A stretch of DNA of 52,221 bases. Origin: an uncultured Candidatus Peribacteria bacterium. GTDB lineage: Bacteria > Patescibacteriota > Gracilibacteria > BD1-5 > UBA6164. Under the pieces are notes generated by a model that was given only the letters and a program-made list of their open reading frames with translations, made no database searches and had not been told where the DNA came from. Numbering within the stretch: position 1 is the stretch's first letter; each line of letters opens with the position of its first letter. The stretch is from contig CAYFPB010000001.1 of NCBI GenBank assembly GCA_964344895.1, positions 16,069 to 68,289 of the forward strand, read 5' to 3'. The translations under genes and the position numbers were made by a program. Positions 6,722 through 40,706 of this stretch are shown here, piece by piece.

Positions 6722-7631
6722 TGATGTAGCCATAGTAGGGACTTATGAGTGTAATACTGATTGTGAGTACTGTTTTTCTACTAGGTATATAAAGCCTTAT
6801 AAAAACATATCTTTAACAAGGGACAAGTTTTATAATATTTTAGATAAGTTAATACTAAATTGAGTTACTTCAGTATCTTTTATATGATGAGAACCAGCAC
6901 TTTGGAAAGAAATAAATTTAGCTATATCCTATGCAAAGTCTAAATGATTAAGAACAACAGTTTTTTCCAATTGAATGATAGAGATAAAGAAAAAACCTGA
7001 TGTCTTTTATATTCATTTAAATGTATTATTTTTAACTCAAAATAAACAAATTTTAAAAAATTTATATGAATATTCAAAGAATTCAAAAATAGTTTTTATT
7101 TATAATGTATACAAACCAAATAAATTTTCTCTAAATTTATTATTAAAAGTGCTAGAAAGTTTTAGATTTGATTTTGCTGTTTCTTTTAATATTGTTTTTT
7201 GAGATAATATAGATGAATCATCTGGTGATTTTATATATAATTGATATAAGTATATTACCTGAAAAATGTGAAAAAATGTTATATCATCTTGACCATTACC
7301 TCATTGTATTTTTAATGATAAAGTATTTGATTATTTGAAAAATACTTGTATTATAGATGAAGTCAAATGATCAGCTAATTTTGAAAATACAGATGTTTTT
7401 TTTCCTGTAATTAATCCAGATTGAGATACATTAATGTCATGTGCACCAATTAATATAAAAATTAGTTCATCTTATATTTTTGAGAATGATTATAAATGAT
7501 ATACAGATAAATTTACAGAAATATTCTGAGAGATTTTATTAAAAGAAAATGATTTTTGTAAAGGCTGTACAAAGTTTAATAAACAATGCCAATATGGAGG
7601 TATTTTAAATCTGTATTCTTATGAGGAGTAA
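6696..7631 (+). CDS. Radical SAM protein
   Basis: 311 aa. Motifs are VGTYECNTDCEYCFS, FIGGEPALW and a C-terminal CKGCTKFNKQC. The track ORF 6975-7202 is an internal fragment in the same frame. Confidence 0.7.
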
Positions 7632-7645
7632 TAAATAGTATTATT

Positions 7646-8545
7646 ATGCACAACCTATTATTTGAAATTATTATGAGTAAAGATTGCAATAAGAGATGTC
7701 CTTATTGTAAACTTGATTTTTCTAAGAAAAATATAGATAATAAAAATTTAGATTTATTAATTAATCTATTAATTAATTCAAAAGAAAAAATAAATAGTTG
7801 TATTATAAATTTTTTTTGATGAGAACCTCTGTTAAATATAGTTTGAATAAAGTATTTTGTTGAAAAAACTAAACACTTAGGTTTTATTAAATATTCTATT
7901 TGAACTAATTGAATATTGTTAACTCAAGAAAAAATAAACTATTTTTTAGAAAATAATTTTAAAATATATTTATCTTTTGATTCTTCAAATACTGACTTTC
8001 TTGTAAATAAAGATTTTTTAAAAAAAGCAATTTGAAATATAGATGTTAACTATATAATTAATCCTAATACTATAGAAAAATCATATAATGATTTTGAAAA
8101 AATAGTAAAGTTTTGATATACAAATATAAATATAATGCCAGTATATTTTACAATAAAATGGGATAAAAACTCATTTATTAGTTTAAAAAGACTGTTAAGA
8201 GATAAAATAAATAAGTATTTATTAAATGATATTTTTAATATAAAATTTTATAGTTATTATAATTGAGTAAGTACAGATATACAATATATTTTAGAAACAG
8301 ATTGAACTCTATATTCTGACTTAGATAGTTTACTTTGGATTCAAAAACAATGATCTATTATATCAAAAGAATTAAGTCAACAAATAGAATATAAGACAAA
8401 AATTTGAAATATTTCTGATGTATCATTAAATAATATTATTAATGCTTATAATATTAAAGATATTATAAAATTGGTTCATGATATACCCAAAGAGCAGAAG
8501 TTTTTAAATGAATATACATTACTTAATAAAATATTAAATGGATAG
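7646..8545 (+). CDS. Radical SAM protein (paralog of 31473-32387)
   Basis: 299 aa. Motifs are CNKRCPYC, FFGGEPLLN and IMPVYFTIKW. The last matches LLPVYFTKTW in the 31473 gene. Confidence 0.7.
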
Positions 8546-12857: not shown

Positions 12858-14960
12858 ATGAAATATATTTGAGCAAATTTTGTGACTACTATTAAGGATT
12901 GGAGTTGTATATTAATAGAAGATTGAAAATTAAGTTGAGCTTGTTTAGATAAGCTGGACTCTTTTAAGTTTTCTCCTTATTTGTCAGATTTAGTATTATA
13001 TTCTATTCAATCAAAAAGGGAATGAAAAAACTCAGAAGTATTTCCAAACTTGTATGAAAATGATTTATTAAATATAGTTTGAGAATCAAGAAATATTTTT
13101 AAAAAATATTTTTCATTAGATAAAAAATATAAAAGTGTAAACTTTGAGGAAAAAAGTATTTTTGATTATAAAAATAAGCATGCTTATTATCATGTTTTAT
13201 GAACGCATATGATATCTTGATTTGATAATTCAGTTTGATTATGTATTGATTACCTTTGATATAATGATAATTGAAATCACCAAGTTCAGACAATTTGGAA
13301 TTGTGTTTGAAATAAAATAGATTTAGTAGATGATTTTGATACAAGTTTAACAATAAATAGATGAATATGATTTACTTATTCTATATTTGCTGATATGTTT
13401 GATATATATAAATATGATGTGCCTTTTCTAGCTGTATATTGAAATAAAGATAGATTTAAGTGAGTTAATATTTATGAGTATAAAAATAATAATGTATATT
13501 TGAGGAAAGAATTTTTAGAATCTATAACACTGAATTCAGATTTATTACCAAAAACTTTTTATGCAAGTATTGAAGAGCTAAATTCAAATATGGATAATAT
13601 ATATTTTAATATAAAAAAGATTTTTAATATTTCAGATTTGGAAATAATAGAAGCTAAAAAAGATTTAAGGAAATGAGTAATTGCTGATTTGTTTGCATAT
13701 GTAGAAAATGAAACAAAAAAAGCAGTAGTATATTTGGCAAAAAAAGCATATAATACTGGTAAATCAAAAAAATTAACAGTCTCTGGTTGGTTGGCTTCAA
13801 ATCATCTATTATGTAAATCATTAATTGATGAAACAGAATTCAGAGATTTTTATTTTGAATTATCTCCAAACTATACAGGTATATCTATTTGAGCAGCTTT
13901 TGAATTATACTGAAAAAAAATACTATTAGAAAAAACCTGATATGGGAAAGAATATACAAATAATCAAATAAAAGCTGATTTAGATAATTATAATGATTAT
14001 ATAAGTTATTCTTTAGAAAAAAATACTAAAATACAAAATGATTTCATAATTGAAAAACTAATAGATAAGAAGATAATTTGATATTTTAAATGATGATCTG
14101 AACTGTGACCTAGGTCGTTATGAAATAGAAGTATTTTAACATCTTGTTTTTGTGAAGATTTATCAGATAGACTAAGAGTTATAAAAAAAAGACAAAATTG
14201 GAAAAGTTTTTCAGTATCAGTGTTAGAAGAGGATTTATGAAAATATTTTAAATCAAATTATAACTCTAGGTTTATGAGTGTTTCTTGAATTTTAAAAGAT
14301 AAGTTTAAAAAAGATTTTATATGAGTAAATCTAGATAATAATGTTATTAGATACCAAAGTGTTTGAGAAAAAAATAACTTAAGCTTATATAGTTTACTAA
14401 AACAATATAAGCAAAAAACAAATAATAGTTTTTTACTTAATACATCATTAAATTCATATAAACAACCAATTGTAGAAACACCCACTCAAGCTATAGAATT
14501 GTTTTTATCTTCAAGGATAGATTATTTAATATTATGAGATTTTATTGTTTCAAAGAATAAGTTATATAAAGAGTTTAGTTTTAATTATAAAAATTTAAAG
14601 AAACAAAAAAATATTCAATATTTTAGTATTAATCATAGTTCATATAAAAACTATTTAAATTTAAAAAATATTATTGAAAAAATAGTACTAAAGGATTATG
14701 ATATGAGTATAAATGATATAAAATATTTTGAAAGAGATATTGATATAGAATTTGCATGAAATAAGTTATTAATAGAAAAAGTTGATAATTGAAAAACATA
14801 TGATTTAAAAACAAAAAATATTTGAATTATGGTAAAACAACTTAATTCAAAAAAAGATTTAGCTATATTTTATAAAAAGCTACTATTGGTTGATAAAAAA
14901 ATAAAAGAAATATTTGATAATTGAGACTACTTTTTGAAGGATTTAATTAATTATTTATAG
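12858..14960 (+). CDS. Carbamoyltransferase family (NodU/CmcH/TobZ-like), divergent paralog 1
   Basis: 700 aa, frame hand-checked. Has YFKGGSELGPRSLGNRSIL (compare the family motif FGPRALGNRS) and LNTSLNSYKQPIVETP. Several positions conserved in paralogs 2 and 3 differ here. GGVALN is replaced by VSGWLASN, S/C-(E/D)-(D/E)-G by NYTG, and HID by NLD. Confidence 0.7.
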
Positions 14961-14965
14961 TTTGT

Positions 14966-16993
14966 ATGAAATACATTTGAGCAAATATATATTCAACAAC
15001 CCATTTGTGGAGCTTTTGTTATTTTGATGATAAAGAAAATAAATTAAAAGCTATTGAGCTTGAAAGATTGGATAGGTATAAAAACTCTCCAAATCTTTCA
15101 AGCTTTTCATTGATTCCAAAAGTAGAAGGTTACCATAAACAGAAATTAATTAATTATTTTAATATTTCTTGAAAATTTAAATCATTGAATTTTGATAGAA
15201 CAAATATCTTAAAAAAACATCATTACCTACATGCTTGTAGTGTATATTATTCAAATAATATAGATTCAGGAGCTATATTATGTATGGATAGAAATTGATA
15301 TGACTCTGATATGGGAAATCAGTTTCAAACTATTTGGTATTGAGATAAAATGGATATTAGTTTTAAATATTCTTCAAAAATTAAGTCACAAATAGATAGG
15401 GGAATAGGTTTTGCTTACTATATTATTTCAGAGTTTTTAAGGCTTTGAGAATGATCAGTAATGTGATTATCAGCTTATTGAAATAAGGATTATTATAAGG
15501 AAATAGAAATATATGAGTATAGAGATAATGGAGTATATTTTAACAAAAATTTTTTAAAAAATTGTGTAATTGAAAAGTCTAACAATATAGAGTTTGATAA
15601 GGAATATGATATTTTTGATGAAAAAAATGGTAATAGAGAAATTATATTGAAAAATATTAAAGATATTTTTAGAATAACTAAAGGTGATTTAATTAAAGCA
15701 AAAGAAGATATTATAAATTCAAAATATGCTCATATTGCAGCTTTACTACAGTATCAAACAGAAGAAGCTATATTATATCTAGCTAAAAAAGCTTATGAAA
15801 TAAGTAAATCAAAAAACCTATGTTTAGCAGGGGGGGTAGCTTTAAATATTTTAGCAAATACTAGAATACTTAAAGAGACAAAATTTGAAAATATATATAT
15901 CTCTCCAGTGTCAGAAGATATATGATTAGCTTTATGAGCTTTTTATCATTTATATCATATTCAGGAAGCTAATAAAAATAGAATATTTTTAGAAAAAACT
16001 TGATATTGAAGAAGTTATTCAAGGAAGGAAGTTTTAAAAGATTTAGAAGAATTTAAAGATGATATAAAAATCATAGAATATTGAGATAATAAAATATATG
16101 ATATAGTTACTGATAAATTGATTGAAGATAAGGTTTTATGATGGTTTCAATGATGAAGTGAATTTTGACCAAGAGCATTGGGGAATAGGAGTATTATAGC
16201 TTGACCAAATTCTATAGAATTAAAAAATAAAGTAAATAATATTAAATCAAGAGAACTATGGAGACCTATTGCCCCATCAATATTAGAGGAAGATATAGAT
16301 AAATATTTTGATATTTCATTTTTGTCTACTTTTATGAGTTTTTCTTGAAATATAAATAAATCAAAACTAGATGAAATAAAATGAGTTGTTCATATTGATA
16401 ATACATCTAGGTATCAAAGTGTTTCAGAAAAAAATAATTTAAATTATTATAAATTAATAAAATTATATAAAGAAAAAACAGGTATCCCAATTATTATTAA
16501 TACTTCAATGAATACAAAAAAAGAACCTATTGTAGAGAGTCCTAGAGATGCTATTGCGATGCTACTTTCCACACAGTTAGATTATTTAGTAATTGATAAT
16601 TTTTTTATATCAAAAAAATTAAATAATTATAAATACAAATTTAATTATGAAAATATTAGACTAAAAAGAAATTTGCTTTCCTATGAAAATAGGAAAAGTA
16701 TTATTAATAGGAAACTGTTAATAGATAAATTAAAAATTTTATTTTCTAGTTTTGATTTTAAGTTTGATAATTATTTTTATGATGAAAAAATTATATTTTT
16801 TATAGATTGAGATAAATATATTATTGAAAAATTTTCAAAAAATATTAATTATTTATTTCATAATAATAAAACTTGATTAATAAAAATTTGAAAGTACTCT
16901 ATTAGTGATGAAAAAATAATAGAATTAATATTTTATAAGCTGGATATTGATAGCTATATATATTCACAGAATTATATTTTAAATGATTATTAA
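14966..16993 (+). CDS. Carbamoyltransferase family (NodU/CmcH/TobZ-like), paralog 2
   Basis: 675 aa. Motifs are KKHHYLHACS, LCMDRNGYDS, LAGGVALNILAN and WFQGGSEFGPRALGNRSI (16142-16192, with Gly as TGA), plus HIDNTSRYQSV and INTSMNTKKEPIVESP. Confidence 0.8.
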
Positions 16994-18382
16994 ATGATAA
17001 CTCAAATATTTTATTCTCAGGTTCTTTTTCCTTCTATTACTTATGATAACTATATTGACTCAGATGTAATGCAGTTAAAACAAATAATTGAAGAAGATTT
17101 TTGATTAATTAAATGTATATTTAGGTGTATAGAGTGAAATTATTTTAATGTGTATTTTAAACATAAAGACTTTGTAGAGGATAAGACTTTACTTAATTCA
17201 AAGAATTGGTATATATATTGATGAGACTGAGAATGACTATTAAGTAGTGTAGTAAATACTATAAATCTATGAAAGAAAAAACAGACAGATTTTAATTTTT
17301 TTAAGGAAAAGGAGTTTTATGATAAAATTCCTTTTTGAACAGTATTATCTATTACAAGTAAATGTAATATATTTTGTAATTATTGTTTTAATGATTATGA
17401 TTATCCATTAAATACAAGAAATTCAAGAAAAACAATGAGTTTAGATCAGTATAAATATATAATTGATGAACTATATAAAGCTTGAACTAGAGATATAATA
17501 CTTACTTGATGAGAACCATTTGTATGTTCTTATTTATGGGATTTACTTGATTATTTGAAAGAAAAAAATATTTTTATAAGGATAAATACTAATTGAACCT
17601 TAATTAATGATAAGGTTTTAAAAAGACTGAATGATAATTATGTTGTTAATTTAATGGTATCTATTCATGAATTTAATAATAATGATTATTTTGAAGTTAA
17701 CAAAACTTGAGCAAAAAATATACAATGAATTAAATGATTAAACAATTTTGAAGAAAAGTTTGAAAAAAAGGTTATAGAATTAAGAAAAATAAAAAATTAT
17801 AAAAATATAAGCTTGGATGTTATGACTATTTTAAATCCAAAAAATATCTTTAATTTAGAAAAAATTTATGATTTTATATTAGGTAATTTTGAAATAGAGG
17901 ATTGGCATTTTTTTAGACTTTATTCTACTTGAACAACAAAGTGAATATCTAGATCTATGATATCTTTGGCAGTTGCTAAATTATATAAATTAAATAAGGT
18001 ATATAATAGAAGTTTTAAAATAGTTGATAGTATACCATTTTGTGCAACAAAAAATCCAGAAATAGCATGACAAGTAATTGATTGAGAATTATCACCACAT
18101 CATAATGTAAAGACAATTATAACTACTACTTGATGAGTACAAATAATGTCAGCTTTTGATACAACTTTATGAAGTATTTTTGAGGAAGGTATTGAAAAAA
18201 TATGGCAATGAGAGTTTGTACAAAAAATGCTGAATAATTGATATTTACCTGATGAATGTCATGATTGTAAATTTAAAGAAGAATGTAGGGGATGATCTAG
18301 GATGGATTGAAATATTTATAAATGAAGCTATAAGGCTTTTGATCCTCTTTGAGATATTAATAATAAAGTAATAAATGAATAA
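16994..18382 (+). CDS. Radical SAM/SPASM-type protein with ~115-aa N-terminal extension
   Basis: 462 aa. Motifs are CNIFCNYC and LTGGEPF. The C-terminus reads PFCATKNP ... ECHDCKFKEECRGGSRMD. The rSAM core starts only after about residue 115. Confidence 0.7.
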
Positions 18383-19664
18383 AAAAGAATTTCTAAATAA
18401 AATAAAACAAACAAAAAATCCTTACTTTGCTAAGGATATTTTATCATTGTTTTTGAAAAAAGAAGTTTTTATGAAAAAAATATATTCCCAAATAGAATAC
18501 TTATGAATAAAAAGATCAGATATTAATATAATTAGTGATATAACCAATAAAATTAAGAAAAATAAAGAAACTTTTATAGATGAAAAATCAAAAGATATTT
18601 ATTATAAAGCTAGATCTATTTGATGTACTTTATGTACTTTATGAAAAGGTGTTACAGTAGTACTTAGTTATAAGTGTCATAGAGATTGTTTTTTTTGCTA
18701 TGAAGAAACACCTCAAGACCCAAAGGTAAAAATTGATCCATATAGTAGTAATGATATGGAAAAAATTTATTCAATTATAGATACAGCATTTAAGGATTCT
18801 AGCAATAAGACTTTAGCAATAACTGGGGGAGAGCCTTTCTTATTTACTGATAAAGTTTATGAGATTTTAGATTATGTAAATAAAAATTATTCTTGAAAGC
18901 ATACAAGAATATACACTACTTGAGATATAATGAATCAAGATATATTATCAAATTTAAAAAAATTGAAATTAGATGAAATAAGATATAGTATAAAACCTTA
19001 TGAAGAACCAAAGTTAGATCTTTTTAAAATGACAAAAAAGTATATAAAAACAGTAATGATAGAAATGCCAGTACAACCAGATTCTAAGGAGTATATGTTA
19101 GATATTTTATCAAAAATAGATAAAGCTTGAGATATAGATGGAATTAATTTAAATGAATTGACATTTAATAATTTAAATAAATTTAAGTATAGGGAACATA
19201 ATTATACTTTAGATTTACCTGATTCAAAAGATCAAGTTTATCATAGATATTTTGATGTACCAAAAATAGAAATATGAGTGACTTGAAGTAAACAGTTATG
19301 TTTAGAATTAATAGAGTATTTTTCTTGAAAAAAAGCTAATTTTTTTATGCATTATTGTGATTTAGATACAGTATCTCATCACCATTATCTTCATAAAAAA
19401 AATGTGGCAAAGACATTAGGTAATTGATATGAAGAAATTACTAGGTATGGATTGAATAAAGTATTAAGAATTTATTCTAATTTACCTAAAGTAAAGGATT
19501 TATTAACAAGTAATAATATAACTAATTATAATGATTATTGAAATTATATTGAAACAGGTATAGCTAATTTAGCCCTTTTTAAAGATAAATGATTTTTACA
19601 AGCAATTATTTATAAAACTTATGATAATAGTTCACTAGTAGATTATGAATTAATTAATTTATAG
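18375..19664 (+). CDS. Radical SAM protein
   Basis: 429 aa. Motifs are LSYKCHRDCFFCYEE and ITGGEPFLF. The start overlaps the previous stop (18375 vs 18382). Confidence 0.7.
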
Positions 19665-19665
19665 T

Positions 19666-20001
19666 ATGAGTAGTTTTGATTATAAAAATAATGAGGTAAT
19701 AAAATGATTTAAGTTATTGGATAAACAAGAACTGTGGCCTGCTAAAGAGGTTATGACTCTTTTTTGATATAAAAATGAGGAAGAGAGTTTTCTTGATTTA
19801 CTTAAAAAAGCAAGAAATATATGTGAGATGAAAGGTGTTGATCCTAAAAAACATTTTTTGTGAGATATGGAAGATTTAAATAGTTTATCATTAACAAAAT
19901 ACTCATCTTTTTTAATATCTATTTTTGCTGATTTGAAAAAAAAAGAGGTAACTTATGCAAAAATGTTCTTTGAAATAGAAATAAAAAATATGTATGTCTA
20001 A
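19666..20001 (+). CDS. Small DinD-like (DNA-damage-inducible protein D family-like) protein
   Basis: 111 aa. The pattern LWPAKEVMTLFGYKNEEESFLDLLKKARNICEMKGVDPKKHF ... LTKYSSFLISIFADLKKKEVTYAKMFF resembles the DinD family as I recall it. The 3' end overlaps the next gene by 8 nt. Confidence 0.4.
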
Positions 20002-22657
20002 AAATAATATCTACATTTCCTGTAATGCTATAGTTTCTAATGACAATTGGTCAATTAGTTATTTATTTAAGTGAAAAATTTTTGCAATTTCTTTAGAAAG
20101 ACTAAATAGAATAAAAGAGTTTCCAGATACTTACTTTGCTAATAGATTACCATCTTATCAAAAAGAACTATTTAATGGTATTACAGATAAAACAAGAAAT
20201 TATAAAAAATTAATAAGTTTTAGAAATTATATATCAAAATTAATTAATGATACTTTGAAAAGAAAGATTGACTTTGATATAATAGATAAAATATATTTAA
20301 TGAATTTTCCATTTGATATCACAATTAATTGATATGAAGAAAAAGTAGTTTCTGAAAAGAAGAATTTTCATCATTTATTTCATGCTTGTAGTGCTTATTT
20401 TCCTTCAAACTTTAAAAAATCAGCTATATTGTGTATGGATCATGATTGATGTGATGAGGAATTATGATGAGTAAATCCTATGCATTCAATATGGTATGCT
20501 AAAGATAATAAACTTGATTTCTTATATTCTGATAATTTTGATACAAATAAAAATCAAGTTTGAATAGGTACAGTATATCACATACATTCAAAAATATGTT
20601 CTTTAAATGAGGGGACCTTTATGTGACTTTCATGATATGGGAATCCTAAATTTAATAATGTTGATATTTTTGATTATTCATCAGGAGGGCCCTTAATATC
20701 AAAACAGTTTTTTGAACAATCAAAAGTATATAAATGAAAGCTAGATTCATATGATATAGAGTATGATAAAGAATTGGAACTTGAAAAAGATTTAATTAAT
20801 AACTTTAAAAAATATTATTGAATAGAAAAATATGATACAGATGATTTAGTAAATTCAAAATATGCAGATATAGCTGATAATGTACAAAAACAGACAGAAA
20901 AAGCTATAATATTTTTAGCTAATAAAGCCTATGAATTAACAAAATCTAAGACATTATGTATTGCTGGTGGAGTCTGATTAAATATTTTAGCTAATACAAA
21001 AATCTTAGAGCAAACCCCTTTTGAGGAAATATTTGTTCAGCCTGCTTGTTCTGATGAATGATTATCTTTATGATGATTGTATTATTATTATCATATTATT
21101 AATAAAAATAATAAAAGAATAAGATTAGAGAATCCTTGATTAGGATTTGTTTATTCAAATGATTATATAAAAAACTGTTTAGAAAATTATTGTGATAAGC
21201 TAGATTTTAAGTTATTAGAGAATAAGAGTGAACAAGTAGCTGAATTATTAAATAATAATAAAGTAGTTTGATGGTTTCAGTGATGAAGTGAATTTTGACC
21301 AAGAGCTTTATGATATAGAAGTATTTTAGCTAATCCTAAATCAAAAAAAATAAGAGATAAAGTCAACAATATAAAGCTTAGGGAACTTTTTAGGCCTTTA
21401 GCTCCTGTAATATTAGAGGCAGACATTTGAACATATATGGAAACAGATAGAAAAAGTCCATATATGACACTAGTTGCTAAAGTAAAAAATAAATATAGAA
21501 AAAAATTAGAATGAATTACTCATATAGATTTCACAGCTAGATATCAAACAGTATCAATTAAAGAAAATACTGAACTATACAATTTACTAAAATCTTATAA
21601 AAATATTTCTTGAGTTTGAGTATTAATTAATACTTCTTTTAATGTAGCAAAAGAACCTATAGTTGAATCTCCAGTTGATGCTATAAAAATGTTTTTATCT
21701 ACTGATTTAGATTATTTAATTATATGAGATTTTATAGTAGAAAAGAAAACTAAATATGATAATTTAAAATTTAATTCTAAAAGAGTATTAAAAAACTATA
21801 GTACTAATTTAAAGGAAACTATAAGAGATTTAAGAATAGTAAATACTTGCTCCAATAATTGTATATATTGTTTAGAGCAATCATACAGAATAAAAGATAA
21901 ATTTATAAATAAAGTAAATATTTTTGATAAAATTAATAATTCAAATATATCTAATAGTATAAACTTTTATTGATGAAATCCATTACTTCATCCTGATTTA
22001 GAAGAAATTATTAAGTTTTCTAAAACAAAAATTGATAATATATGAATATTAACTAATACAAAATTTTTATCAAAAGATAAAATGGAAAAATTAACTGCTA
22101 GTTGATTAACTTCAATTTGATTTTATTTCAATTGTTTTGATAAAGATAAACATCTGCTTTTAAATGGATGATGAATAAGTCTAGGAGAGTTAATTAATAA
22201 TTTGGATATTATAATAAACTCAAAAATATTTTATAAAGCTATAATTCATATAAATAAACAAAATATTGATAGGCTATATAAAGATATTTTATTGTTAAGT
22301 ACAAGGTTTTGAGTAAAAAATATTGAGTTTGTAAATTATTTCCCTTTTGATAGACCTTATAAAAATAAAGAAATTTTAGAATATGATATATTAAAAAATA
22401 GAAAAAATATAGATAATTTGTTTAAAATTATAAAAAAGTTATGATTAAAAGTAGAGTTTATAAAATTTAGCAAAGATTTTTTTTGAGAGTACTTAGATTT
22501 TTATGATTTTAATAATTGAATTGTCTGACAAATATGAGAAGAAGATAAACAAAGATTAAGTTGAAAAGATAATCCTTTTTGTTATACTGAAAATAGATGT
22601 AAAACTTGTTTTATAAAAGATAGTTGTATTTTTTTACAAAAGAAAAATGTATGATAA
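19994..22657 (+). CDS. Fusion protein: carbamoyltransferase (NodU/CmcH/TobZ-like, paralog 3) with a C-terminal radical SAM domain
   Basis: 887 aa. Every codon was hand-checked and there is no TAA/TAG before 22655. The N-terminal ~590 aa carry NFHHLFHACS, LCMDHDGCDE, IAGGVGLNILAN, WFQGGSEFGPRALGYRSIL, HIDFTARYQTV and INTSFNVAKEPIVESP. The C-terminal ~290 aa carry RIVNTCSNNCIYCLEQ, FYGGNPLLHPD and CYTENRCKTCFIKDSC. Confidence 0.8.
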
Positions 22658-23222
22658 TTTATTAAAGATTTTTGATAAGAGGTTTTCTTGTCGTAATTTT
22701 GAGAAATGATATAAAATTCCAGAGGAGGATATAAAAAAAATGCTTTCTTGAGCATATTTATGACCTTCTTCTTATTCTTTGTGGCCTTTTGAGCTTATAG
22801 TTATTGATAATCCAAATTTAATAAAATTGATTGCAAATTCTATATGAGAGCATAGGTTTTGCCAAGATTGTTCAGTAATGATATTTGTTGCTCAGGAAAA
22901 ATTAAAATATGAAAATAAATCAGAATGATTAAGAAGGGAATTATTAGCCGCAAATGAAGCTCATATTGATGCATCAATTGCTTGAACCTACCTTGATTTA
23001 GTTGCTACTTCCCTTTGATATAGTACAGTATGGATGTGATATTATGAAAATATTATATGAAGAAAAATATTAAGAATCCCAAATCATCTAGAGTTATTAT
23101 ATTACATTGCTATATGAAAAAACTCAGATCCCAATAAGTTTAAAAAACATTATTATAACACAAAATATAAGCAAAAAATATATACTATGAGATATTGAAA
23201 TAAATATTATGATAACAAATAA
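22647..23222 (+). CDS. Nitroreductase-fold flavoprotein-like protein
   Basis: 191 aa. The pattern FSCRNFEKGYKIPEEDIKKMLSGAYLGPSSYSLWPFELIVIDNP matches the nitroreductase family pattern (R.F....I....i..il.aa..aPS..n.qPw.f.vv). Confidence 0.6.
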
Positions 23223-24015
23223 GCAAATAAAAAATATACTAAAAGATTTTATAATAGATAATATAAAATCTATAAAAAATGATAAATATCATTGTGTTTT
23301 TGAGTTAATTATTGATTGAGAGAAATATATTTTAAAAAAACAACAAAATTTTAGTGATTTATTAAAATTAAATATAGATAAGTTTCTTAGTGTAAAGTGG
23401 ATAAATAAAAATTATATTTTATATAAAAAAATTGAATGAACTTTACTTTCTTCTAAAAAATATAATAAGGAAGTTTATATTGATTTTATAGATTTTTTGA
23501 AATTATGGCATTGAAAATTAGAATGAAATAATAGTAATTTTTCAATAAAAAAACAGAACTATGATTTTAACTCTATAAAAAGAAACTCAAAACATTTATG
23601 AATAAATATAGGTGAATTAATAGAAAATATAAGAAGTATAGATTATAAAGATTATAGTTATGCAATTACGCATAATAATATAACTTTACATAATATCTTA
23701 TATAATAAACATAACTTTTATTTAATTGATTTTGATACATTTTGATTTTGATATTTAGAGGATGATATATTTTGATATTTATATTATTTATATCAAGAAA
23801 AAATTGAATTAGATATCATAGATTGAGTAGTAGATAGAATAAAAAAAATATATGGTTATACAGATGGACAAATAAATAAATTTTTATTAAATTTTATATA
23901 TAAAAATTTATGAGTTTTTTTATCAGAGAAAGATTATAGCTTTTTTCTGAAAGATAACTTATTTTTTGTAGTGTCTACATTAAAAATATTAAAAGATATA
24001 TATAATAGAAATTAA
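23209..24015 (+). CDS. Kinase-fold (APH/choline-kinase-like) protein, catalytic-loop Asp apparently replaced
   Basis: 268 aa. ITHNNITLHNILYNKHNFYLIDFDTFGFGY aligns to the HGDxHxxN ... IDFE/D pattern. It has N where the catalytic-loop D is expected. Confidence 0.45.
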
Positions 24016-24024
24016 ATATTTTTA

Positions 24025-24990
24025 CTATTTTTGGGACAGCTTTTTAAAAATAAGTTTTTTATTTAAGTCATTATTTAGTTTTCTAAAATATTTTAATCAG
24101 GCTATTTCTTTTTTTATCTTTACTTTATTTTGAAGTAAATCTATAATTTTTCATTTTAAAAAAAATACTGAACTATATTTTTTTTCTATACTTTGATCAT
24201 AATTATCAATATAATAATTAAGAATTTTTGATTTATTTGATGTATTATTAAATAAGCAAGACTTATTATTTTCTAATTTATATAGAATAGTATTATTAGT
24301 AAGGCTTTGTTGTTTAAGTTTTTTCATTATAATAATTACAGGAATTTTTCAATTTATATCAAGAAATATTTTATATCATGCTTTATAATTTCAACTAATA
24401 GAGTTATAATTTATGATTTCTGGTTTTAAAAAATATAAGTAATCTCAAATATAAGATAGAAGATAGACTTTTTTATTTATTATTTTTTCATATATATTAT
24501 TATTTAACTCTATTTTTATTACTAGTTTTTTTAAGTTATTTTTGGTAATAATATTTTTTTTGATTATTTCTTTAAAAAAATTTAGGTATAAGTTTTCATT
24601 TTTTACAATTGCATGAGGATAATTTTTATGTTTTAATAAATTAATAGTTTTTTTATCTTCTATAAAGGATTTTTCAATAAGTATTTTATTGTTTGAAAAA
24701 TCTTTAAGTATATTTATATATATTTCTTCTTGATTTTTTAATGGATTTACTCCAATAAAAATAAAAGCTATATTGTTTAGATTACTTTTTATTGTTTGAA
24801 TGTAGTTATTATCTACATTTATAGAGTATTGTTTTTCTATTTCTTTTTTTGTCTTTTGAGTTTTACAAACTCAAATTATATTATCTTTTACTCATTCTCA
24901 TATTAAAAAATCTATTAGTTTTAATCATTGACGTCATAGTCAAATAATAATAATTTTTTTAGATTTTACTAAGTTTTTAATTAATTTCAT
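24025..24990 (-). CDS. Rossmann-fold putative oxidoreductase, paralog of 12093-12857
   Basis: 321 aa, translated from the ATG (revcomp) at 24990. The N-terminus is MKLIKNLVKSKKIIIIGLGRQGLKLIDFLIGEGVKDNIIGVCKTQKTKKE. The stop (cta on the plus strand) is at 24025-24027, 9 nt from the convergent gene's end. Confidence 0.5.
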
Positions 24991-25061
24991 AATTTAATTG
25001 ATTTTTATTTTAATATAATTAAAATTTACTAAATTTTCAAACTTTTCTTAATAATATATTT

Positions 25062-25748
25062 ATGAAAAATAAAAAAGAAATTTTAGAATTTATTAAAAAT
25101 ATAGATTATTTATTAAAAATTACAAATTTATTATGAATTAATGATTATAAAAATTATATTTTTACTTCACCATTTGTATATAATAAAATTGAGTGATGTA
25201 AGGATACCAAGTCTATAATGGAAGAAATATTAAAACAAAAATTATGAAGTATTAATTTAATAGAACTAAATTTTCAAAATATTGATATAGATATTTTTAT
25301 AAAAATTCATAAATTACTTCCTAGTTATAAGGAAAATTTTCAGAAATGGATAAATTTGATGTATTATTCTACTATTAATTTAGAGAGTCAAAAAAATGGT
25401 AGAAAAATAAACAAAATATTTACAGATAACAATAAATTAATAAATATAAATACTTTAAGTGTTAAAGAAATAGTGTTTTGACTTGATTTAATGTTTTTAG
25501 AATGAAAAAAACTACTAGAAAGTAAAAATAATATTAATTGTCAAACAAATAATTTATTATTAATGCTTATAAGTGATTATAGAGATATATTGGAATGAAC
25601 AAGAGAAAAAAGATATAATTTTAATAAACATGAGATAGATAAAAATATGAAATATATTGAACAAGCTTTATGAAAAACAAGAATAGAGTTGTTTTCTTTA
25701 AATTTTATACAACTAATTAATAGTAATATATGAACTATAAAAGACTAG
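25062..25748 (+). CDS. Hypothetical protein
   Basis: 228-aa table-25 ORF (MKNKKEILEFIKNIDYLLKITNLLGINDYKNYIF...). No motif recognised. It is the first gene of the second plus-strand block. Confidence 0.5.
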
Positions 25749-27771: not shown

Positions 27772-29397
27772 ATGTTAAATAAAATTAATAATTTTATAGA
27801 AAAATTATTATCATTAAATTTTCCAGATTCAATATATAAATATACTTTTTTGTATAATGAATTACTTATAAGTATTTTTATAAATAATACTTTTGTTTTA
27901 TTTTGAGTTAATTATAAAGTTAATTCTATATTAATTAATTACTATTCTTGAAATAAAACAATTTATTGAAAAAAGTTAATGCTACTTTTGTTAAAGTATG
28001 AGGAATTATTTTATAAAATATTAAAAAATTGAAATAAACAATTATCTAATTTAAGAGAAGAATCAGATTTTATAAATATTTTTGATAAAAATGAATATAA
28101 TTTGTTTGATATAGATTTAAGATTATCTTATACTTTTTTAGATGATTATGCTTGGAGAAGACAAATTCAAGAAGAGTTTTATTTTGATGAAAAGGTATTA
28201 AGTATCTATCACAGTGATTTTGAGTGCTCTAAGTGTTATTGACCAATAAAATCTTTTAATACTTTTACAAATCATCAAAAATTAATTGAAGAAAGTATTG
28301 AAGATGAGGATAATGGTTCTGATTTTTTATATACAAATATTAATGATTATGAATCAATTACAGTATGATGAAATGATAAGATTTCAGAAATTATTTCTGA
28401 TAAAAAATTATTAAATAATTATGATATAGTAAAACTGGATAAAACATGTATATCTGTTATAATGTGAGATGACTTAACTTCAATTATTAAGTATAATAAG
28501 TTAAATAAAAATAAAATGATATACATGGATCAAAATATAGATAGTCCATATAGGGCAGTTATAAATTATTTGAAAAATATTTTTATTAATGAAACTAAAA
28601 AAAATAATGAAACTATATTTTTTGGATTAAATAAAGAAAAAAATACATTTGAAATTATTGAATTTTTGTATGTAAATTTCTGAATAAAGGTTTGAAGTAT
28701 ATTATTACCTCATATTAATGTTAATGACTTGGAAAATATTTTAAATTATAAGTTGGCTGTATTTTTTACTTGAAGAGAGGTTAAGGCTCAGAGTGTTTTT
28801 AAGCTTTATCCAATAGATAATATTGAATTAACTATTCCATATGGCTTAACTAATATGTATAATTTTTATAAAAATGTTCTTAGGAAATACTGAAAAGATA
28901 ATGAAATAAGTATAGTCCAGGATTATATAAATAATCTAAAAAGTACAAATATATCATTATTTGAAAAATCAAAATGATTATGAATTGGATTTGTTATTTT
29001 TGATTTTCATATAAAATATTTTCTTGAGGATAACTTTAGGGGAGTTCCTATTTTATCCTTATTAGAGGATATGTGATTTAATATTAATTTTTTTATTTTT
29101 AAAAATTCAAATAAATATGCATTAGATATAGAAAAGTTTAGAAATATGTGATTTAATATATTATTTTCACAAGATAAAAAAAAGTTAGATAACTTTATTT
29201 CTTCAGAAAATACTCAATTATTTTATTCTGAAATTTCCAATGATTTAAGAATTTTATCTAAACACAAACAACAGTTTTCAATATGAGATTTAGAGTATTG
29301 AATAGAAGGTTTTTTTAGAACATTTAAATTGTTAATTAATAAGTGTGAAAAGGTAAAATATATTGAAAAAAATTTTGTTTATTATTTAAATAAGTAA
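27772..29397 (+). CDS. Nitrogenase component-1-type oxidoreductase family protein (NifD/K/E/N, BchN/B, CfbD-like), long form with ~190-aa N-terminal extension
   Basis: 541 aa, every codon hand-checked. ESITVGGNDKISEII and KLDKTCISVIMGDDLTSII match the family pattern (E.d.VfGG..kl...I; v..tC..e.iGDDi). It is directly followed by a shorter paralog and a NifH-like gene. Confidence 0.55.
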
Positions 29398-29398
29398 T

Positions 29399-30607
29399 AT
29401 GGATTTAGTTGAAAAATATTCTCAAGTTTATGGTAGCCCTTTCTTGACAGGTGTATTTATGTGAGTGAATGCTATTAGAGATGTAGCTTTATATGTTGAT
29501 TGACCTGATTGTATATTTTATAAATCTGATTTGTTGTATAAAACTCATGATATTTTTTCAGATTTAAAAAGTATTAATACTGATACAAAACTATATTTTT
29601 CATGAAAAATGCCAAATAAAATGGTAAGAGCTTATGATGATAAAATAAAATCTAAGTTAAAATATATAGATGCTAATAAAAAATTTAATTTATGAGTTAT
29701 CACTTGTATGCCTGTTACTTGATTACTTGCAACACAATATAATAATATATTTTCTGATTTAAAAAAAGACTTTATTTTTGTTCCATCATATACAGATAAA
29801 TTTCGGATTGATTGATATTCTATTTTCTTGAGAGAATTAGCTAAAAATATGGACTTTAATTTAAATAAAGAAAAAAAGAAGTTAAATATTTCAATAATTT
29901 GATATTTATATGATAGAAACGAATGAGATTGTATTTGAAATATTGAGGAAATAAGAAGAATTTTATGATTAATTTGAGTAAAAATTAATTCTATATGGTT
30001 AGATTGATGAAAATTAGATGATTTAAAAAATATTAAAGAATCAGAGTTATTAGTATCTTTACCAAATTGACTTTATGCTTCAAAAATATTATCAAAGAAA
30101 TTATGAGTCCCTTATATAGATTTAAATATACCATTTTGATTAAAATCTACAATTGATTTTATTAATAATATATGAAAGAAATTATCAATAGATGATTCTA
30201 TTTTATTTAAGGTTATACAAACAGAGTTAAAAATTATTAAAAAGTCAACAGATTTTATAGATGATAGAGTATTTTCAGGAATAAATTATATATATTGATG
30301 AAATCCTGATTTAAAAGAAGGTATTGTTGATATATGAAATTATTTATGAATGAATATTTTGAAATCTTATTCATATACATGAGATAAGTTACCAAATAAA
30401 TTAGATATTGATTCAAATAAATTAAATTTGCTTATATGAAATTCAGATTTTTTTATTGATTGATTAGACTATAAAAAGATAGAGTTTTGATTTCCTTCAT
30501 ATAATACACATTATTTATTAAATAGACCATATATGTGATTTAAGGGATTTTTGATTTTTATTGAAAATCTATATAATGAGTTAAAAAAGGAAAATCCTTT
30601 ATACTAA
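29399..30607 (+). CDS. Nitrogenase component-1-type oxidoreductase family protein, short form
   Basis: 402 aa, every codon hand-checked. FMGVNAIRDVALYVDGPDCIFY matches the family pattern Ga..a...i.da..l.HGp.gC. It also has LGVITCMPVTGLL and a C-terminal IEFGFPSYNTHYLLNRPYMGFKGFLIFIENL. Confidence 0.65.
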
Positions 30608-30642
30608 AAAATAGTTGTTTTTTTATAATTTAATTTATATAT

Positions 30643-31461
30643 ATGAAAAAAATTGTTATATACTGAAAATGATGAATTTGAAAATCAACTACTTCAACTC
30701 ATTTATCTGTTGCATTTGCAAAAACTTGATTAAAAGTATTACAAGTTTGATGTGATCCAAAACATGATTCTTGTAAAAGAATTTTAGACTGAGTAAGAGA
30801 TATTCCAACTGTTATTGAGTTATCAAAAAATAGAGATATTTTTGATTTTACAAAAGATTTAATAGTTCATGAGTGAAGGTTTTGAATTGATTGTATAGAA
30901 GCTTGAGGGCCAATAGCTTGATTATGATGTGCTTGAAGGTGAATATCTCTCATGTTTGAAATATTTGAGGAGATTTGATTATTAGATGAAAAAAATTATG
31001 ATGTAGTCATCTTTGATGTACTTTGAGATGTTGTTTGCTGATGATTTGCATCACCCTTAAAAATATGATTTGCTGATCAAGTATATATAGTGTTATCTGA
31101 AGAAATAATGAGTATGTATGCAGCTAATAATATATCAAAAGCAATTGTTAATTATAAAAATAATTGAATATGACTATCTTGAGTTATTTTAAATTTGAGA
31201 AGTAATGATAGTGATATATCTGTTGTTAAAGATTTTTGTAGAACTATATGAACAGATATTGTGTGAATAATTAAAAGGTCTTCTTGAATTCTGAAAGCTG
31301 AAAAAAAGAATATGACTCTTTATGAATTTGATGAATTAGATACAGATTTAGAAGAGTATGATAATTTAAGAGATTTTATATTTAATAATTCAATAAAAAT
31401 AATTCCAAAACCTTTTACAGATAAAGATTTTGATGATTTTATTTATGATAGATTTTATTAA
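30643..31461 (+). CDS. NifH/BchL/CfbC-family ATPase ([4Fe-4S] Fe-protein-like)
   Basis: 272 aa, every codon hand-checked. Motifs are IYGKGGIGKSTTS (Walker A), LQVGCDPKHDS, CIEAGGPIAGLGCAGRGI and FDVLGDVVCGGFASP. Both canonical cluster Cys are present, plus YIVLSEEIMSMYAANNI. Confidence 0.85.
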
Positions 31462-31472
31462 TAAAAAAAAGA

Positions 31473-32387
31473 ATGAAATATAGTATAATAAATCATATTA
31501 CAAGCTCATGTAATTACAATTGTACTTATTGTGATGTTATTAAGGATGGAAAAAAACTGGATGTTGAAAAAATAGATGAAATTATTGAGTTTATAAAAAT
31601 AAATTATAAGAACATTTGAGATTTTAAATTCTTTTGATGAGAACCATTATTAGTTTTTAGGCAAATAGAAAAGATAATAGTAAATACAAAAAAATATATT
31701 GAAAATGATTTTTTTGAGATTGTAACTAATACCTCATTGTTAAGTGATAAACATTTAGATTTTTTTTCAAATAATTTTAAAACTATCTATTTAAGTATAG
31801 ACAATGAAAATAATTTTAATAAAGATTTATTTAATAAAATTATTAATGATTATAATACAATAGAAAAAAAAATATATATAAATCTTGTAATAGATCCAGC
31901 TAAAATAAAACAAGCAAGAGAATTATTTTTTGAACTTTATAATTTATGATTTAAGTGATACAATTTATTACCTGTATATTTTACTAAAACTTGGACGAAA
32001 CATCAACTTTTAGATTTATCAAATTTTATTAGAGAAGTTTTAGATATTAGTTTAAATGATAAATGATTAAGAATGTATTGATTTATAAAAGAAAAATGAG
32101 ATGATTCAAAATTATCATATAATTCATTATTTTTAGATACTGATCTTAAAGTTTATTATTCAGATATTGTTTCAACATATATGTGAAAAAAATATAAAAA
32201 ATGATTATTTATATGAAATACATATGAATTATTGTTAAATAAATTATCTGATGAAATAATTAAAGACAAAAAGAAATTATTTGAAGCTATAGAAAATAGT
32301 ATAATAAATAATAAAATATGACAATTTCAATTGCATAAAATAATGGATTATTTTTCTGAATATTTAAATAAAAAAACTAACTTATAG
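31473..32387 (+). CDS. Radical SAM protein (paralog of 7646-8545)
   Basis: 304 aa. Motifs are SSCNYNCTYCD, FFGGEPLLV and LLPVYFTKTW. The track ORF 31737-31949 is an internal fragment in the same frame. Confidence 0.7.
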
Positions 32388-32398
32388 TTAGTTTTTTT
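32370..32398. terminator. Hairpin shared by convergent genes (bidirectional terminator candidate)
   Basis: The stem aaaaaaactaac / gttagttttttt is 12 bp with a ttata loop, flanked by A and T runs. The two convergent CDS ends (32387 plus, 32377 minus) lie inside it. Confidence 0.5.
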
Positions 32399-33678
32399 AT
32401 TATTTCTAATAAGTAATTTGAAATATATAATATTACTTTATTGTCTAAAAAGTAAGTAACTAAAAATCAAATAAAAATATAAGGAGCAAAAGCAAATACT
32501 TTAAGAATTCTTATATTATTTAAAGCTTTAATATTATGTTTTATATGACTATCTGATACTATTTTATATATTTTTTGCAGTTTTTTTACATCTTTTTTTT
32601 CTAAAGGTAGTTCTATATTATAAAAATAGTGTGTAGGGGTACTTTCAAAAAGATTTTTATTTTGAATTAATATATCTTGTTTTCAAAAAGTTTGAATTAA
32701 GTGATTTTTATCAATTATATCTCATATTTTTAGATTTTTTATATTAATATAGATCATCTCTGAGATTCAGAAAGTTAATTTATAACTATAAACTAGTACT
32801 TTAAAAGTAATATAAATTAGTATATATAATGTAAAAATAATGACTAGAGAATTAATAATTTCTTCAGGATTTATTAAGTATTGTTTAAATATAAAAATTC
32901 ATAATAAGATAGATAATAATAGTACAAAAAATCATTGTATAATACTTGTTTTAATTCATGATATTTTTTTAAAATATTCTTTAAATATATTTAATACTTT
33001 TATCACTAAGAAAAGTCAAGCTAAAAATATTAGAATAAATCAAAATATTAGATAGAAGTGATATTCCTGTATTAAAGTATTTATAAAATTAAATCAGTTT
33101 TGGTTTTCTGTTATTAACTCATTGAATAAGTATATTCTAGATAATCTTATACATGTAAAAATTATTAAAAAAATAAGTAATCAATTTAATATTATTGAAA
33201 AATTATTTCATCATTTATTTTTTTTATAATTAATCCACTTTTCTTTTAAGTCAAGTTTTATATTATATATTATATTTTTGATATGTCATTTATAAAAAAA
33301 ACATTTACCAAGATAAAACCAAAAGAAATAAGCTATTAAATAAGCTAAAGTAATAAGTGCTATATTTCATATAAATGGTACTATTCCTATTTGAGGAATA
33401 TATAAGCTTAATACAAGTAAGTATTTAGCATCTCAAGCAGCCCATAATCAAAAATAAAATAATAGAAAAGAAACTAAGAAAGCAAGAAATGTTTGAATAA
33501 AAAAAGAAGCTAGATTTATATCATAACTAACAAAAGTAAAAATATATGAAAATGGTAATAAAACTAACAAATATATTAAATATTTGTTAGGTATTTTTTT
33601 TGTTTTTATATCTGAATATACTATTTTAAAATTTATGTATAAAAATAAAATAATTATTATGTAAAAAATATATCCCAT
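32377..33678 (-). CDS. Polytopic membrane protein with an N-terminal A24 (prepilin/preflagellin peptidase)-like domain and a long C-terminal extension
   Basis: 433 aa, translated in 60-nt blocks. IVYSDIKTKKIPN and GLWAAGDAKYLLVL are two Asp motifs typical of family A24, and the G before the second D is TGA. Several further hydrophobic segments follow, then a ~130-aa hydrophilic tail. Confidence 0.6.
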
Positions 33679-36742: not shown

Positions 36743-36776
36743 AAATATCCTAGTTACTAGGATATTTTTATTTGTT
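36734..36776. terminator. 20-bp-stem palindrome spanning both stop codons of convergent genes
   Basis: The sequence is taacaaataaaaatatcctag tta ctaggatatttttatttgtta, with pairs checked out to 36734/36776. Both convergent ORFs end ...aac aaa taa (N-K-stop) inside the two arms. Confidence 0.6.
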
Positions 36777-40370: not shown

Positions 40371-40512
40371 ATTTTCATATTTAAATATAATATATATTAA
40401 TTTAATCATATTTTTTAAATAAATGCAAAAATAGCTTAATTTTTATTTGTTTATAATGAAAAAATGATTATATTATATTAGAAAAATTTATATATTTTTA
40501 AGTAACGAATTA

Positions 40513-40695: not shown

Positions 40696-40706
40696 AGTGT
40701 TAAAAA

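Follow-up and report, generated by a model that had tools for sequence, protein, structure and literature searches.

Class III O-carbamoyltransferases, which include TobZ, NodU, CmcH, GdmN, NovN and VtdB, are built from a Kae1-like and a YrdC-like domain. In GdmN, the YrdC-like domain forms carbamoyl adenylate (carbamoyl-AMP), and the acceptor receives the carbamoyl group from the Kae1-like domain (PMC9633730). The iron of the Kae1-like domain is held by two His and two Asp residues that are highly conserved across the class (H133, H137, D156 and D333 in GdmN), and GdmN His27 is the catalytic base, its H27N variant being inactive (PMC9633730). A C-terminal dimerization domain of about 100 residues is required for the function of GdmN, and TobZ is active as a tail-less monomer (PMC9633730). 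Carbamoyltransferases (PF02543) also have precedent in the formation of peptides that are ribosomally synthesized and modified post-translationally (RiPPs), where forms fused to a RiPP recognition element (RRE) have been retrieved by RRE-Finder (PMC12710340). Here, we describe a gene of 887 codons in which a complete carbamoyltransferase of class III is joined in frame to a complete radical S-adenosylmethionine (SAM) enzyme. It lies in a stretch of 52,221 nucleotides (the window, to which all positions refer) from an uncultured Candidatus Peribacteria bacterium (assembly GCA_964344895.1, contig CAYFPB010000001.1, positions 16,069 to 68,289).

The surroundings of this gene recall two systems that have been published separately. 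The first is the His-Xaa-Ser (HXS) system HxsABCD (TIGR03976-03979), which has an antiphage role in E. coli, where HxsB, HxsC and HxsD mature HxsA in a radical SAM-dependent manner (PMC13128918). This maturation includes a +8 Da change of the '+C/-4H-type' in an S-H-x-S-S repeat, the chemistry of which was left unresolved in that study; the system as published consists of four genes and is 99.7% Pseudomonadota (PMC13128918). The window shares with it HxsD and HxsB proteins that score above their cutoffs, an HxsC-like radical SAM protein and HxsA-like His-Xaa-Ser repeats. However, the window locus is much larger, comprising about 21 radical SAM genes as well as three carbamoyltransferases and a nitrogenase-like trio, and its repeats are uniform HGS units ending in SRW. 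The second system is a new (group VI) nitrogenase paralog found amid radical SAM genes in Elusimicrobia and two Gracilibacteria, for which tetrapyrrole reduction was predicted (Meheust et al., 2020; 10.1101/765248). Carbamoyltransferases, Hxs genes and repeat peptides are not mentioned in that work (10.1101/765248). In common with the group VI cluster, the window has NifH-like and divergent NifD/K-like genes amid many radical SAM genes, a likeness in gene content. Both domain families of the fusion and the Hxs system are known, while the combination in one protein is new to the literature searched, in which no description of a carbamoyltransferase-radical SAM pairing was found.

The gene forms a single open reading frame (ORF) only under an alternative genetic code. 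Under bacterial table 11, the plus-strand frame at 19994-22657 contains 41 stops, namely 40 in-frame TGA codons and the terminal TAA, whereas under code 25 (UGA=Gly) it is uninterrupted over 887 amino acids; the probability of 887 codons free of TAA and TAG by chance, given the base composition of the window, is about 7e-35. The TGA codons of the ORF coincide with glycines conserved in the respective families (CMDHD-G-CDE, GGV-G-LN, GGSEFGPRALG and FY-GG-NPLL), TGA is the dominant glycine codon in the called genes of the window (727 TGA versus 195 GGN), and sequences of close relatives have been deposited as Candidatus Gracilibacteria. Thus, the organism uses genetic code 25, as in Gracilibacteria/Absconditabacteria. 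Code 4 (UGA=Trp) would also keep the frame open, yet it places Trp on invariant glycine positions and was rejected in favor of code 25. An earlier note on this DNA had described a single intact ORF and had translated TGA correctly as glycine, but it never mentioned the alternative code on which both depend. The G+C content of the window is 21%, and 97.6% of it is coding. In public protein collections, these proteins are kept with Trp at the UGA sites (for example, P0001), a substitution that leads to weaker Pfam matches. The NifDK-like proteins, for instance, are 'faint' or absent in precomputed annotation and rise above the Pfam threshold once correctly translated.

Three Pfam domains are present in the one protein, each above its cutoff: Carbam_trans_N (PF02543, Kae1-like; residues 40-360, 104.7 bits, gathering cutoff 24), Carbam_trans_C (PF16861, YrdC-like; residues 416-584, 217 bits, cutoff 27, matching the full profile from 1 to 170) and Radical_SAM (PF04055; residues 615-760, 50.1 bits, cutoff 29.5). 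The carbamoyltransferase part carries HHLFHACS (126-133), CMDHDG (147-152), GGVGLNILAN (325-334), GGSEFGPRALGYRSIL (430-445) and NTSFNVAKEPIVESP (546-560), and the radical SAM part carries NTCSNNCIYC (617-626), FYGGNPLLHPD (658-668) and CYTENRCKTCFIKDSC (863-878). Every motif quoted in the earlier note was located where it had been placed, and the proposal of a complete NodU/CmcH/TobZ-type enzyme joined to a radical SAM domain is confirmed, including the profile match in the C-terminal third on which it depended. Pfam detected no acylphosphatase or zinc-finger domain of the kind specific to HypF, which sets the fusion apart from the HypF-type (class II) enzymes. Likewise, the Pfam SPASM domain (PF13186) was not detected in the fusion, though the four family-invariant C-terminal cysteines are present. 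The radical SAM domain of the fusion does not qualify as HxsC, as it scores 22.9 bits with TIGR03977 (cutoff 267.9) and 32.7 bits with NF038332 (cutoff 500). No curated radical SAM subfamily cutoff in NCBIfam was reached, the best matches (tungsten-cofactor maturase, TIGR04133, MoaA and HxsC4) all lying far below theirs. An assignment to defence as a viperin (pVip) was also discarded, since PADLOC gave only generic matches to the N-terminal core (about 40-60 bits), which were obtained equally with four radical SAM proteins of the window that are unrelated.

Assembled contigs and a diverged copy establish that the fusion is real and has been maintained. The same product was called on seven contigs, and the whole gene, junction included, matches the window in every base in four loci, which come from four sequencing runs (ERR2281802-05) and two assembly pipelines. 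At the boundary, R611 occupies the position of the initiator Met of the free-standing orthologs, and no Met occurs from residue 611 to the CxxxCxxC motif; therefore, the radical SAM domain cannot be produced alone. One further copy of the same fusion was found among relatives, on a short JGI contig (L047), where the end of Carbam_trans_C is followed by a homologous linker and the start of the radical SAM domain; the junction is the same, and the ORF stays open as far as the end of the contig. This copy is 61% identical to residues 561-878 of the window protein over 318 amino acids, with one gap of a single residue, and 74% identical in nucleotides, indicating that the fusion has been maintained through substantial divergence. 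The junction, which had been reported to lack a stop, contains neither stop nor indel in the four assemblies or in the diverged copy.

The radical SAM half corresponds to a protein that normally stands alone. A search with this part retrieved 116 homologs, all of them free-standing; the full-length ones are mostly about 262-310 amino acids long with 37-63% identity, and they come from Gracilibacteria/Absconditabacteria, including Candidatus Absconditicoccus praedator, to which lineages this family of about 274 amino acids appears, from the sequences retrieved, to be restricted. When aligned, the N-termini of 96 free-standing orthologs fall at residue 611 of the fusion and their C-termini at about residue 883. 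The fusion retains 70 of the 71 columns conserved in at least 90% of these orthologs, the sole loss being the start Met, and the conserved columns include C619/C623/C626 and C863/C869/C872/C878. The genomes of relatives were scanned with Gly-free conserved blocks of the family, and genes were called anew with code 25, covering 26 genomes that represent species, about 24 loci from metagenomes and four other loci. Across these roughly 50 re-called loci, the gene is free-standing in all except L047. It belongs to a conserved array with the order rS319-rS300-[CT]-rS462-...-rSAM274-rS304-rS328-rS333-[NifDK-NifDK-NifH]-rS429b-rS312, often with HxsD-HxsB-HxsA-HxsC on its 5' side.

The closest syntenic relative, L027, has the order CT700-CT675-rS462-rS429a-Bro111-free rSAM283. 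Its DNA is colinear with that of the window except for two segments inserted in the window, the first being a stretch of about 1.8 kb (about 20002-21825) that constitutes the carbamoyltransferase module. The fusion begins with MSKNNIYIS (19994-20020), similar to the start of the free radical SAM protein in L027, MIKNNNILS (positions 9974-10003 of L027), a likeness that could be due to chance in AT-rich sequence or to microhomology at the insertion site. The second segment, 22635-25706, encodes a nitroreductase, an unknown protein of 302 amino acids, a minus-strand Rossmann protein and an unknown protein of 228 amino acids. The first three of these genes recur on the 3' side of the rSAM274-rS328 pair in L048, so this module looks mobile within the cluster.

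The fold of the radical SAM family was modeled with AlphaFold2 on the ortholog P0128, a family member and not the fusion itself, which gave a compact partial TIM barrel (pLDDT 94.5). Foldseek matched this model to viperin, SuiB, MoaA, BlsE and SkfB (E about 1e-9 to 1e-8), with TM-scores of 0.59-0.66 for most matches and 0.52-0.54 for MoaA; NifB and HydE were also among the matches. The core shared with the MoaA/viperin/SuiB-like (twitch/SPASM-type) enzymes, with TM-scores of 0.60-0.66 for viperin, SuiB, SkfB and others, is accompanied by a Cys-rich C-terminus in both. However, the CX5CX2CX5C motif of this family has four cysteines only, without a match to Pfam SPASM or to a curated subfamily. 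This motif is a candidate binding site for an auxiliary cluster.

The carbamoyltransferase half is closest to a Gracilibacteria family of about 695 amino acids (CT695), with 47-58% identity. It keeps 85% of the invariant body columns of CT695, compared with a mean of 97% for true members in a leave-one-out comparison, 79% for the second fusion protein described below (P0014) and 61% and 41% for the two window paralogs. The first 25 or so residues after Carbam_trans_C are retained in the fusion, which then continues with the complete radical SAM protein instead of the tail of about 85 amino acids. Compared with other class III enzymes, a whole radical SAM enzyme stands where GdmN, NovN and the Gracilibacteria relatives have an auxiliary tail of about 100 amino acids, and the setting is a cluster of peptide and radical SAM genes, not a pathway for an aminoglycoside or a polyketide. 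The two unfused paralogs upstream, CT700 and CT675, have no radical SAM domain by Pfam. They end at the equivalent point in tails of about 100 amino acids, as the earlier note had recognized; those tails are not unrelated, as it had held, but homologous to each other and replaced in the fusion. In an AlphaFold2 model of a tailed relative in correct translation (P0020, pLDDT 86.5), the tail is a small domain of a beta-sheet plus helices. Some chains of GdmN superpose across this tail, but in another orientation and with a root-mean-square deviation of about 10 A, so that equivalence of the modeled tail to the auxiliary (dimerization) domain of GdmN is plausible though unproven.

A second, analogous fusion was found in P0014 (892 amino acids, locus L001), which has the same three Pfam domains. 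It was rejected as another copy of the window fusion, because its radical SAM half is orthologous to the free-standing window gene at 7586-8545, and no match between this half and the fused domain of the window was detected. Nevertheless, the breakpoint is the same in both, with the linker retained and the tail replaced, and in L020 an unfused pair of neighbors, CT593-rS319, is found. An exhaustive search of 1.84 billion representatives with a query across the junction added a single fragment, P0249, which belongs to the second type; its best 150 matches included no further fusion of a carbamoyltransferase to a radical SAM domain. Several candidates were set aside: P0254, which had seemed to span the junction, is a fragment of a tailed carbamoyltransferase; P0252, P0282 and P0284 end in different tails, which lack CxxxCxxC; and in P0355 the fusion is to a class I methyltransferase, not to a radical SAM domain. 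Together with P0049, which is fused to a PqqD/RRE domain, P0355 shows that other C-terminal partners of PF02543 carbamoyltransferases are attached at the same site after the YrdC-like domain, where the window protein has radical SAM as its partner. The architecture is very rare in the sequence collections searched, with two lineages for the window fusion and two for the analogous type. Besides the window protein, only L047 and the analogous P0014 and P0249 were found in the protein searches and the roughly 50 loci.

Among solved structures, VtdB (7xb6), TobZ, NovN and GdmN are nearest to the carbamoyltransferase half, with E values of 1e-46 to 1e-63. The P0020 model superposes on the same four enzymes, and HypF is only distantly similar (TM 0.28). 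All characterized structural relatives found (TobZ, GdmN, NovN and VtdB) are O-carbamoyltransferases. Residues H126, H130, D149 and D354 of the fusion align with the ligand positions of TobZ and are invariant in relatives, and the motif residues of the YrdC-like domain are intact. By analogy with the chemistry of the family, the fusion should catalyze carbamoyl transfer dependent on ATP and carbamoyl phosphate. At the column of the catalytic base (H14 in TobZ, H27 in GdmN), however, the fusion has Asp17, while this column is His in P0014, CT675 and canonical members and invariantly so in the CT695 family; a few natural family members likewise lack the base His. More extensive decay is seen in CT700, in which the D354 column is Tyr, the base column is Lys and GGVGLN is replaced by SGWLASN. 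It keeps most of the YrdC-like motif residues and is conserved in L027 at 65% identity, and from these features CT700 may be a subunit that only synthesizes carbamoyl-AMP or one with a regulatory role.

The cluster around the fusion is a near-gapless array on one strand, and 21 proteins of the window have a CxxxCxxC motif (Table 1). It qualifies as a His-Xaa-Ser system at the level of the cluster, with HxsB and HxsD above the NCBIfam cutoffs and a protein with HxS repeats in the same locus, although the window HxsA-like protein with (HGS)6 scores below the cutoffs of the HxsA3 and HxsA4 models. A second set of HxsD and HxsB is located at 36146 and 40707. Small ORFs with an HxsD-like C-terminal motif lie between each HxsD and HxsB, one of 68 amino acids in the first set and one of 63 amino acids (40512-40703) in the second; an equivalent ORF of 64 amino acids occurs in A. 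praedator, where it is 5' of HxsD, and in several other loci. HxsA-like precursors are shared by the window and L001, L006, L007, L012, L014, L021, L022, L024 and L031-L034. They have a leader of the form KKIFPKIKKKLxGFLTDESGKITKKDALG, an ASG(I/V)VNGHYSSTP block and from 4 to more than 40 H-G/A-S repeats with the near-invariant end HGSRW, one copy having HGSRR. In both window precursors, the glycines of the repeats are encoded only by GGN and never by TGA, which occurs 7 and 9 times outside the repeats.

The nitrogenase-like trio lies 5 kb 3' of the fusion. In the window (1405-32387) and in L008, L011, L015, L019 and L025, a single near-gapless array on one strand contains Hxs genes together with (HGS)n precursors and the NifH/NifDK-like trio, suggesting that the group VI nitrogenase paralog may act in the maturation of a peptide and not on a tetrapyrrole. 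The free CT695 type is found among the nitrogenase-like genes themselves. In L008, the order is NifH-like, methyltransferase, NifDK574, CT695, rSAM430 and NifDK416, with the start of CT695 overlapping the upstream gene, and it is translationally coupled to NifDK-like genes; L015 and L019 have a similar arrangement. The window also encodes two HemN-like radical SAM proteins, with the methyltransferases ChuW/HutW among their matches, and Rossmann oxidoreductases. The two halves of the fusion are normally separate members of this Gracilibacteria-wide Hxs/nitrogenase-like cluster, a context that was missed, together with Asp17, when the architecture itself was correctly described in the earlier note.

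Two further kinds of protein accompany the arrays. Large secreted proteins with repeated Cys-containing modules of about 90 amino acids, one of them with a FISUMP domain, are encoded on the minus strand at 1-1278 and 36768-40409, where they flank or interrupt the radical SAM arrays. At 32377-33678, also on the minus strand, a membrane protein of 433 amino acids with a type IV prepilin peptidase (A24) domain adjoins rS429b-rS312 in many loci; this protein is a candidate leader peptidase for the precursors.

Table 1. Features of the fusion gene and its surroundings (positions in the window; residues are those of the fusion protein).
Feature	Position	Strand	Basis
Carbamoyltransferase::radical SAM fusion ORF, 887 aa	19994-22657	+	code 25 translation, Pfam, DNA identity in four assemblies
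Kae1-like carbamoyl-transfer domain, residues 40-360, ligands H126/H130/D149/D354	20111-21073	+	Pfam and alignment
Asp17 at the column of the catalytic-base His, just 5' of the Carbam_trans_N match	20042-20044	+	alignment
YrdC-like domain, predicted to form carbamoyl-AMP, residues 416-584, GGSEFGPRALG and NTSFN intact	21239-21745	+	Pfam
Linker, residues 585-610, retained first ~25 residues of the family C-terminal tail; remaining ~85 aa absent	21746-21823	+	alignment; breakpoint shared by P0014 and L047
Radical SAM domain, residues 611-887, complete copy of a normally free-standing protein of ~274 aa	21824-22654	+	Pfam, alignment
CxxxCxxC radical SAM motif, C619/C623/C626	21848-21871	+	sequence, family alignment
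CX5CX2CX5C, C863/C869/C872/C878, conserved family-wide, candidate auxiliary Fe-S site	22580-22627	+	alignment
Paralog CT700, 700 aa, carbamoyltransferase with tail, degenerate Kae1-like site	12858-14960	+	Pfam, alignment
Paralog CT675, 675 aa, intact carbamoyltransferase with ~100-aa tail	14966-16993	+	Pfam, alignment
Free-standing radical SAM protein, 319 aa, ortholog of the P0014 radical SAM half	7586-8545	+	41% over 300 aa, E=2e-65
Radical SAM genes of 462 aa and 429 aa, located in relatives ahead of the gene for the ~274-aa radical SAM protein	16994-19664	+	synteny
Bro-N-like protein, 111 aa, stop overlaps the fusion start, same position in L027	19666-20001	+	profile and synteny
Nitroreductase-family protein, start overlaps the fusion stop by 11 nt	22647-23222	+	annotation
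HxsD	1405-1947	+	62.1 bits, NCBIfam cutoff 50
Small HxsD-like ORF, 68 aa	1951-2157	+	HxsD-like C-terminal motif
HxsB	2161-3639	+	497.6 bits, cutoff 370
HxsA-like precursor, 121 aa, candidate substrate; Lys-rich leader, C-terminal (His-Gly-Ser)6-Arg-Trp	3665-4030	+	sequence
HxsC-like radical SAM protein	4040-4978	+	annotation
Second HxsA-like precursor, (His-Gly-Ser)n repeats, truncated by the end of the window	51869-52221	+	sequence
Nitrogenase-like trio: NifD/K-like (541 aa and 402 aa) and NifH-like (272 aa)	27772-31461	+	PF00148, 94.2 and 35.7 bits; PF00142

With these comparisons in hand, we give an even chance to the reading that the fusion is a selectively maintained, bifunctional tailoring enzyme in an expanded Hxs maturation pathway of Gracilibacteria. 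It would have arisen when a tail-less copy of CT695 was placed in frame directly 5' of the conserved radical SAM gene of about 274 amino acids. Following the chemistry of the respective families, the YrdC-like domain would convert carbamoyl phosphate and ATP to carbamoyl-AMP, and the Fe-containing Kae1-like domain would then carbamoylate a hydroxyl, most plausibly that of Ser in the HxsA-like (His-Gly/Ala-Ser)n repeats. The radical SAM domain would reductively cleave SAM, take a hydrogen atom from the same repeat and cross-link or otherwise transform it. The (HGS)n precursors are rich in Ser hydroxyls, which make the most economical carbamoyl acceptor, although the substrate, the order of the steps and the product are all things that we infer. 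In this scheme, the fusion would keep both active sites on one substrate, with the radical SAM domain replacing the auxiliary tail of the free carbamoyltransferases. Coupled carbamoyl and radical chemistry on one substrate had been proposed in the earlier note; the idea is reasonable and is strengthened because independent fusions recur, but we still infer it rather than observe it.

Several findings weigh against the peptide substrate or against a working carbamoyltransferase. The catalytic base is replaced by Asp17, and the lost tail may correspond to the dimerization domain needed for GdmN activity. Many loci, including that of A. praedator, encode an HGS precursor and the radical SAM protein of about 274 amino acids with no carbamoyltransferase within 10 kb, which implies that carbamoylation decorates a conserved core pathway and is not part of the core. 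The physical ties of free CT695 are to NifDK-like genes, not to Hxs genes. Finally, the radical SAM family is without an RRE-like domain, and besides the peptide maturases SuiB and SkfB its nearest folds include viperin, MoaA and BlsE, which act on small molecules.

The main rival of the peptide reading is a substrate that is not a peptide but of the cofactor type. The same bifunctional enzyme would act together with the NifH/NifDK-like proteins on a small molecule or cofactor precursor, a possibility that we regard as unlikely, if deserving of attention. Variants of it include a tetrapyrrole-type substrate, following Meheust et al., or carbamoyl-derived chemistry that supplies a metallocofactor, loosely like HypF/HypE together with HydG/HydE-type radical SAM maturases. 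The embedding of free CT695 in NifDK-like genes, with translational coupling in L008 and similar arrangements in L015 and L019, speaks for such a role, as do the NifDK/NifDK/NifH-like trio downstream in the window, the published prediction for a nitrogenase paralog with a radical SAM suite (10.1101/765248) and a radical SAM fold that is nearest to viperin and MoaA, with NifB and HydE among the matches. The HemN-like genes of the window also fit, but HemN-like proteins include methyltransferases such as ChuW/HutW, and genes for the biosynthesis of tetrapyrroles were not found in the window. Furthermore, the Nif-like genes share their array with HxsD/B/A/C and precursor peptides, the acylphosphatase and zinc-finger domains specific to HypF are absent, and the close structural relatives all carbamoylate organic hydroxyls.

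A further alternative, which we consider doubtful, is that the carbamoyltransferase half has lost the transfer reaction through Asp17 and the missing tail and assists the radical SAM domain only as a module for nucleotide binding, adenylate formation or docking, leaving the radical chemistry alone. The change of His to Asp at the base column fits with the inactivity of the GdmN H27N variant, and GdmN without its C-terminal domain is non-functional; yet Asp can serve as a general base, other natural members lack the His, and TobZ is active as a tail-less monomer. Retention of family-invariant columns is 85%, against 97% for bona fide members, and the degenerate paralog CT700 indicates that such decay does occur in the window cluster. 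On the other hand, the four metal ligands and the YrdC-like motifs of the fusion are intact, the fusion has been kept through divergence to 61% identity, and the second fusion type, P0014, retains the His. The weakest alternative, in which an assembly or sequencing indel or the wrong genetic code joined two separate genes, draws on the 40 breaks under table 11 and is effectively refuted by TGA being the main glycine codon of the window and lying at conserved glycines, by identical DNA in four assemblies (four runs, two pipelines), by the lack of a start Met at R611 or up to CxxxCxxC and by the identical junction arrangement in the diverged L047.

Returning to a peptide substrate, the two independent fusions could also be taken as Rosetta stones that connect the nitrogenase-associated carbamoyltransferase with the core radical SAM array, in which case the ribosomal (HGS)n peptides would be converted to a carbamoyl-derived, radical-crosslinked product that is then processed by the nitrogenase-family reductase. 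This extension is speculative, and we think it improbable. If true, it would mean that a peptide-derived cofactor or effector is made by chemistry without described precedent, and it would provide the first peptide-derived substrate of a nitrogenase homolog, for which a tetrapyrrole had been proposed instead.

Gene fusions rank among the strongest signs, obtainable from sequence alone, that two enzymes share one substrate, and here two independent fusions tie ATP-dependent carbamoyl transfer to radical SAM chemistry. The value of the finding lies less in the fusion itself than in how it connects carbamoyl chemistry with the radical SAM core array, with the nitrogenase-like module and with the repeat peptides. 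In doing so, it bridges the two separately published observations, one on the His-Xaa-Ser system with its radical SAM enzymes and one on the group VI nitrogenase paralog and the radical SAM suite around it, and for the second of these it points to a role other than the hypothesized one in tetrapyrrole reduction. It also illustrates that genomes using code 25 conceal architectures of this kind from standard gene callers. One precursor peptide and one bifunctional enzyme make up a small testable set, with a mass-spectrometric readout of +43 Da per carbamoyl or of derived shifts. This set offers access to a pathway with about 21 radical SAM enzymes, encoded by a cluster that fills a large share of the very small genomes of Gracilibacteria.

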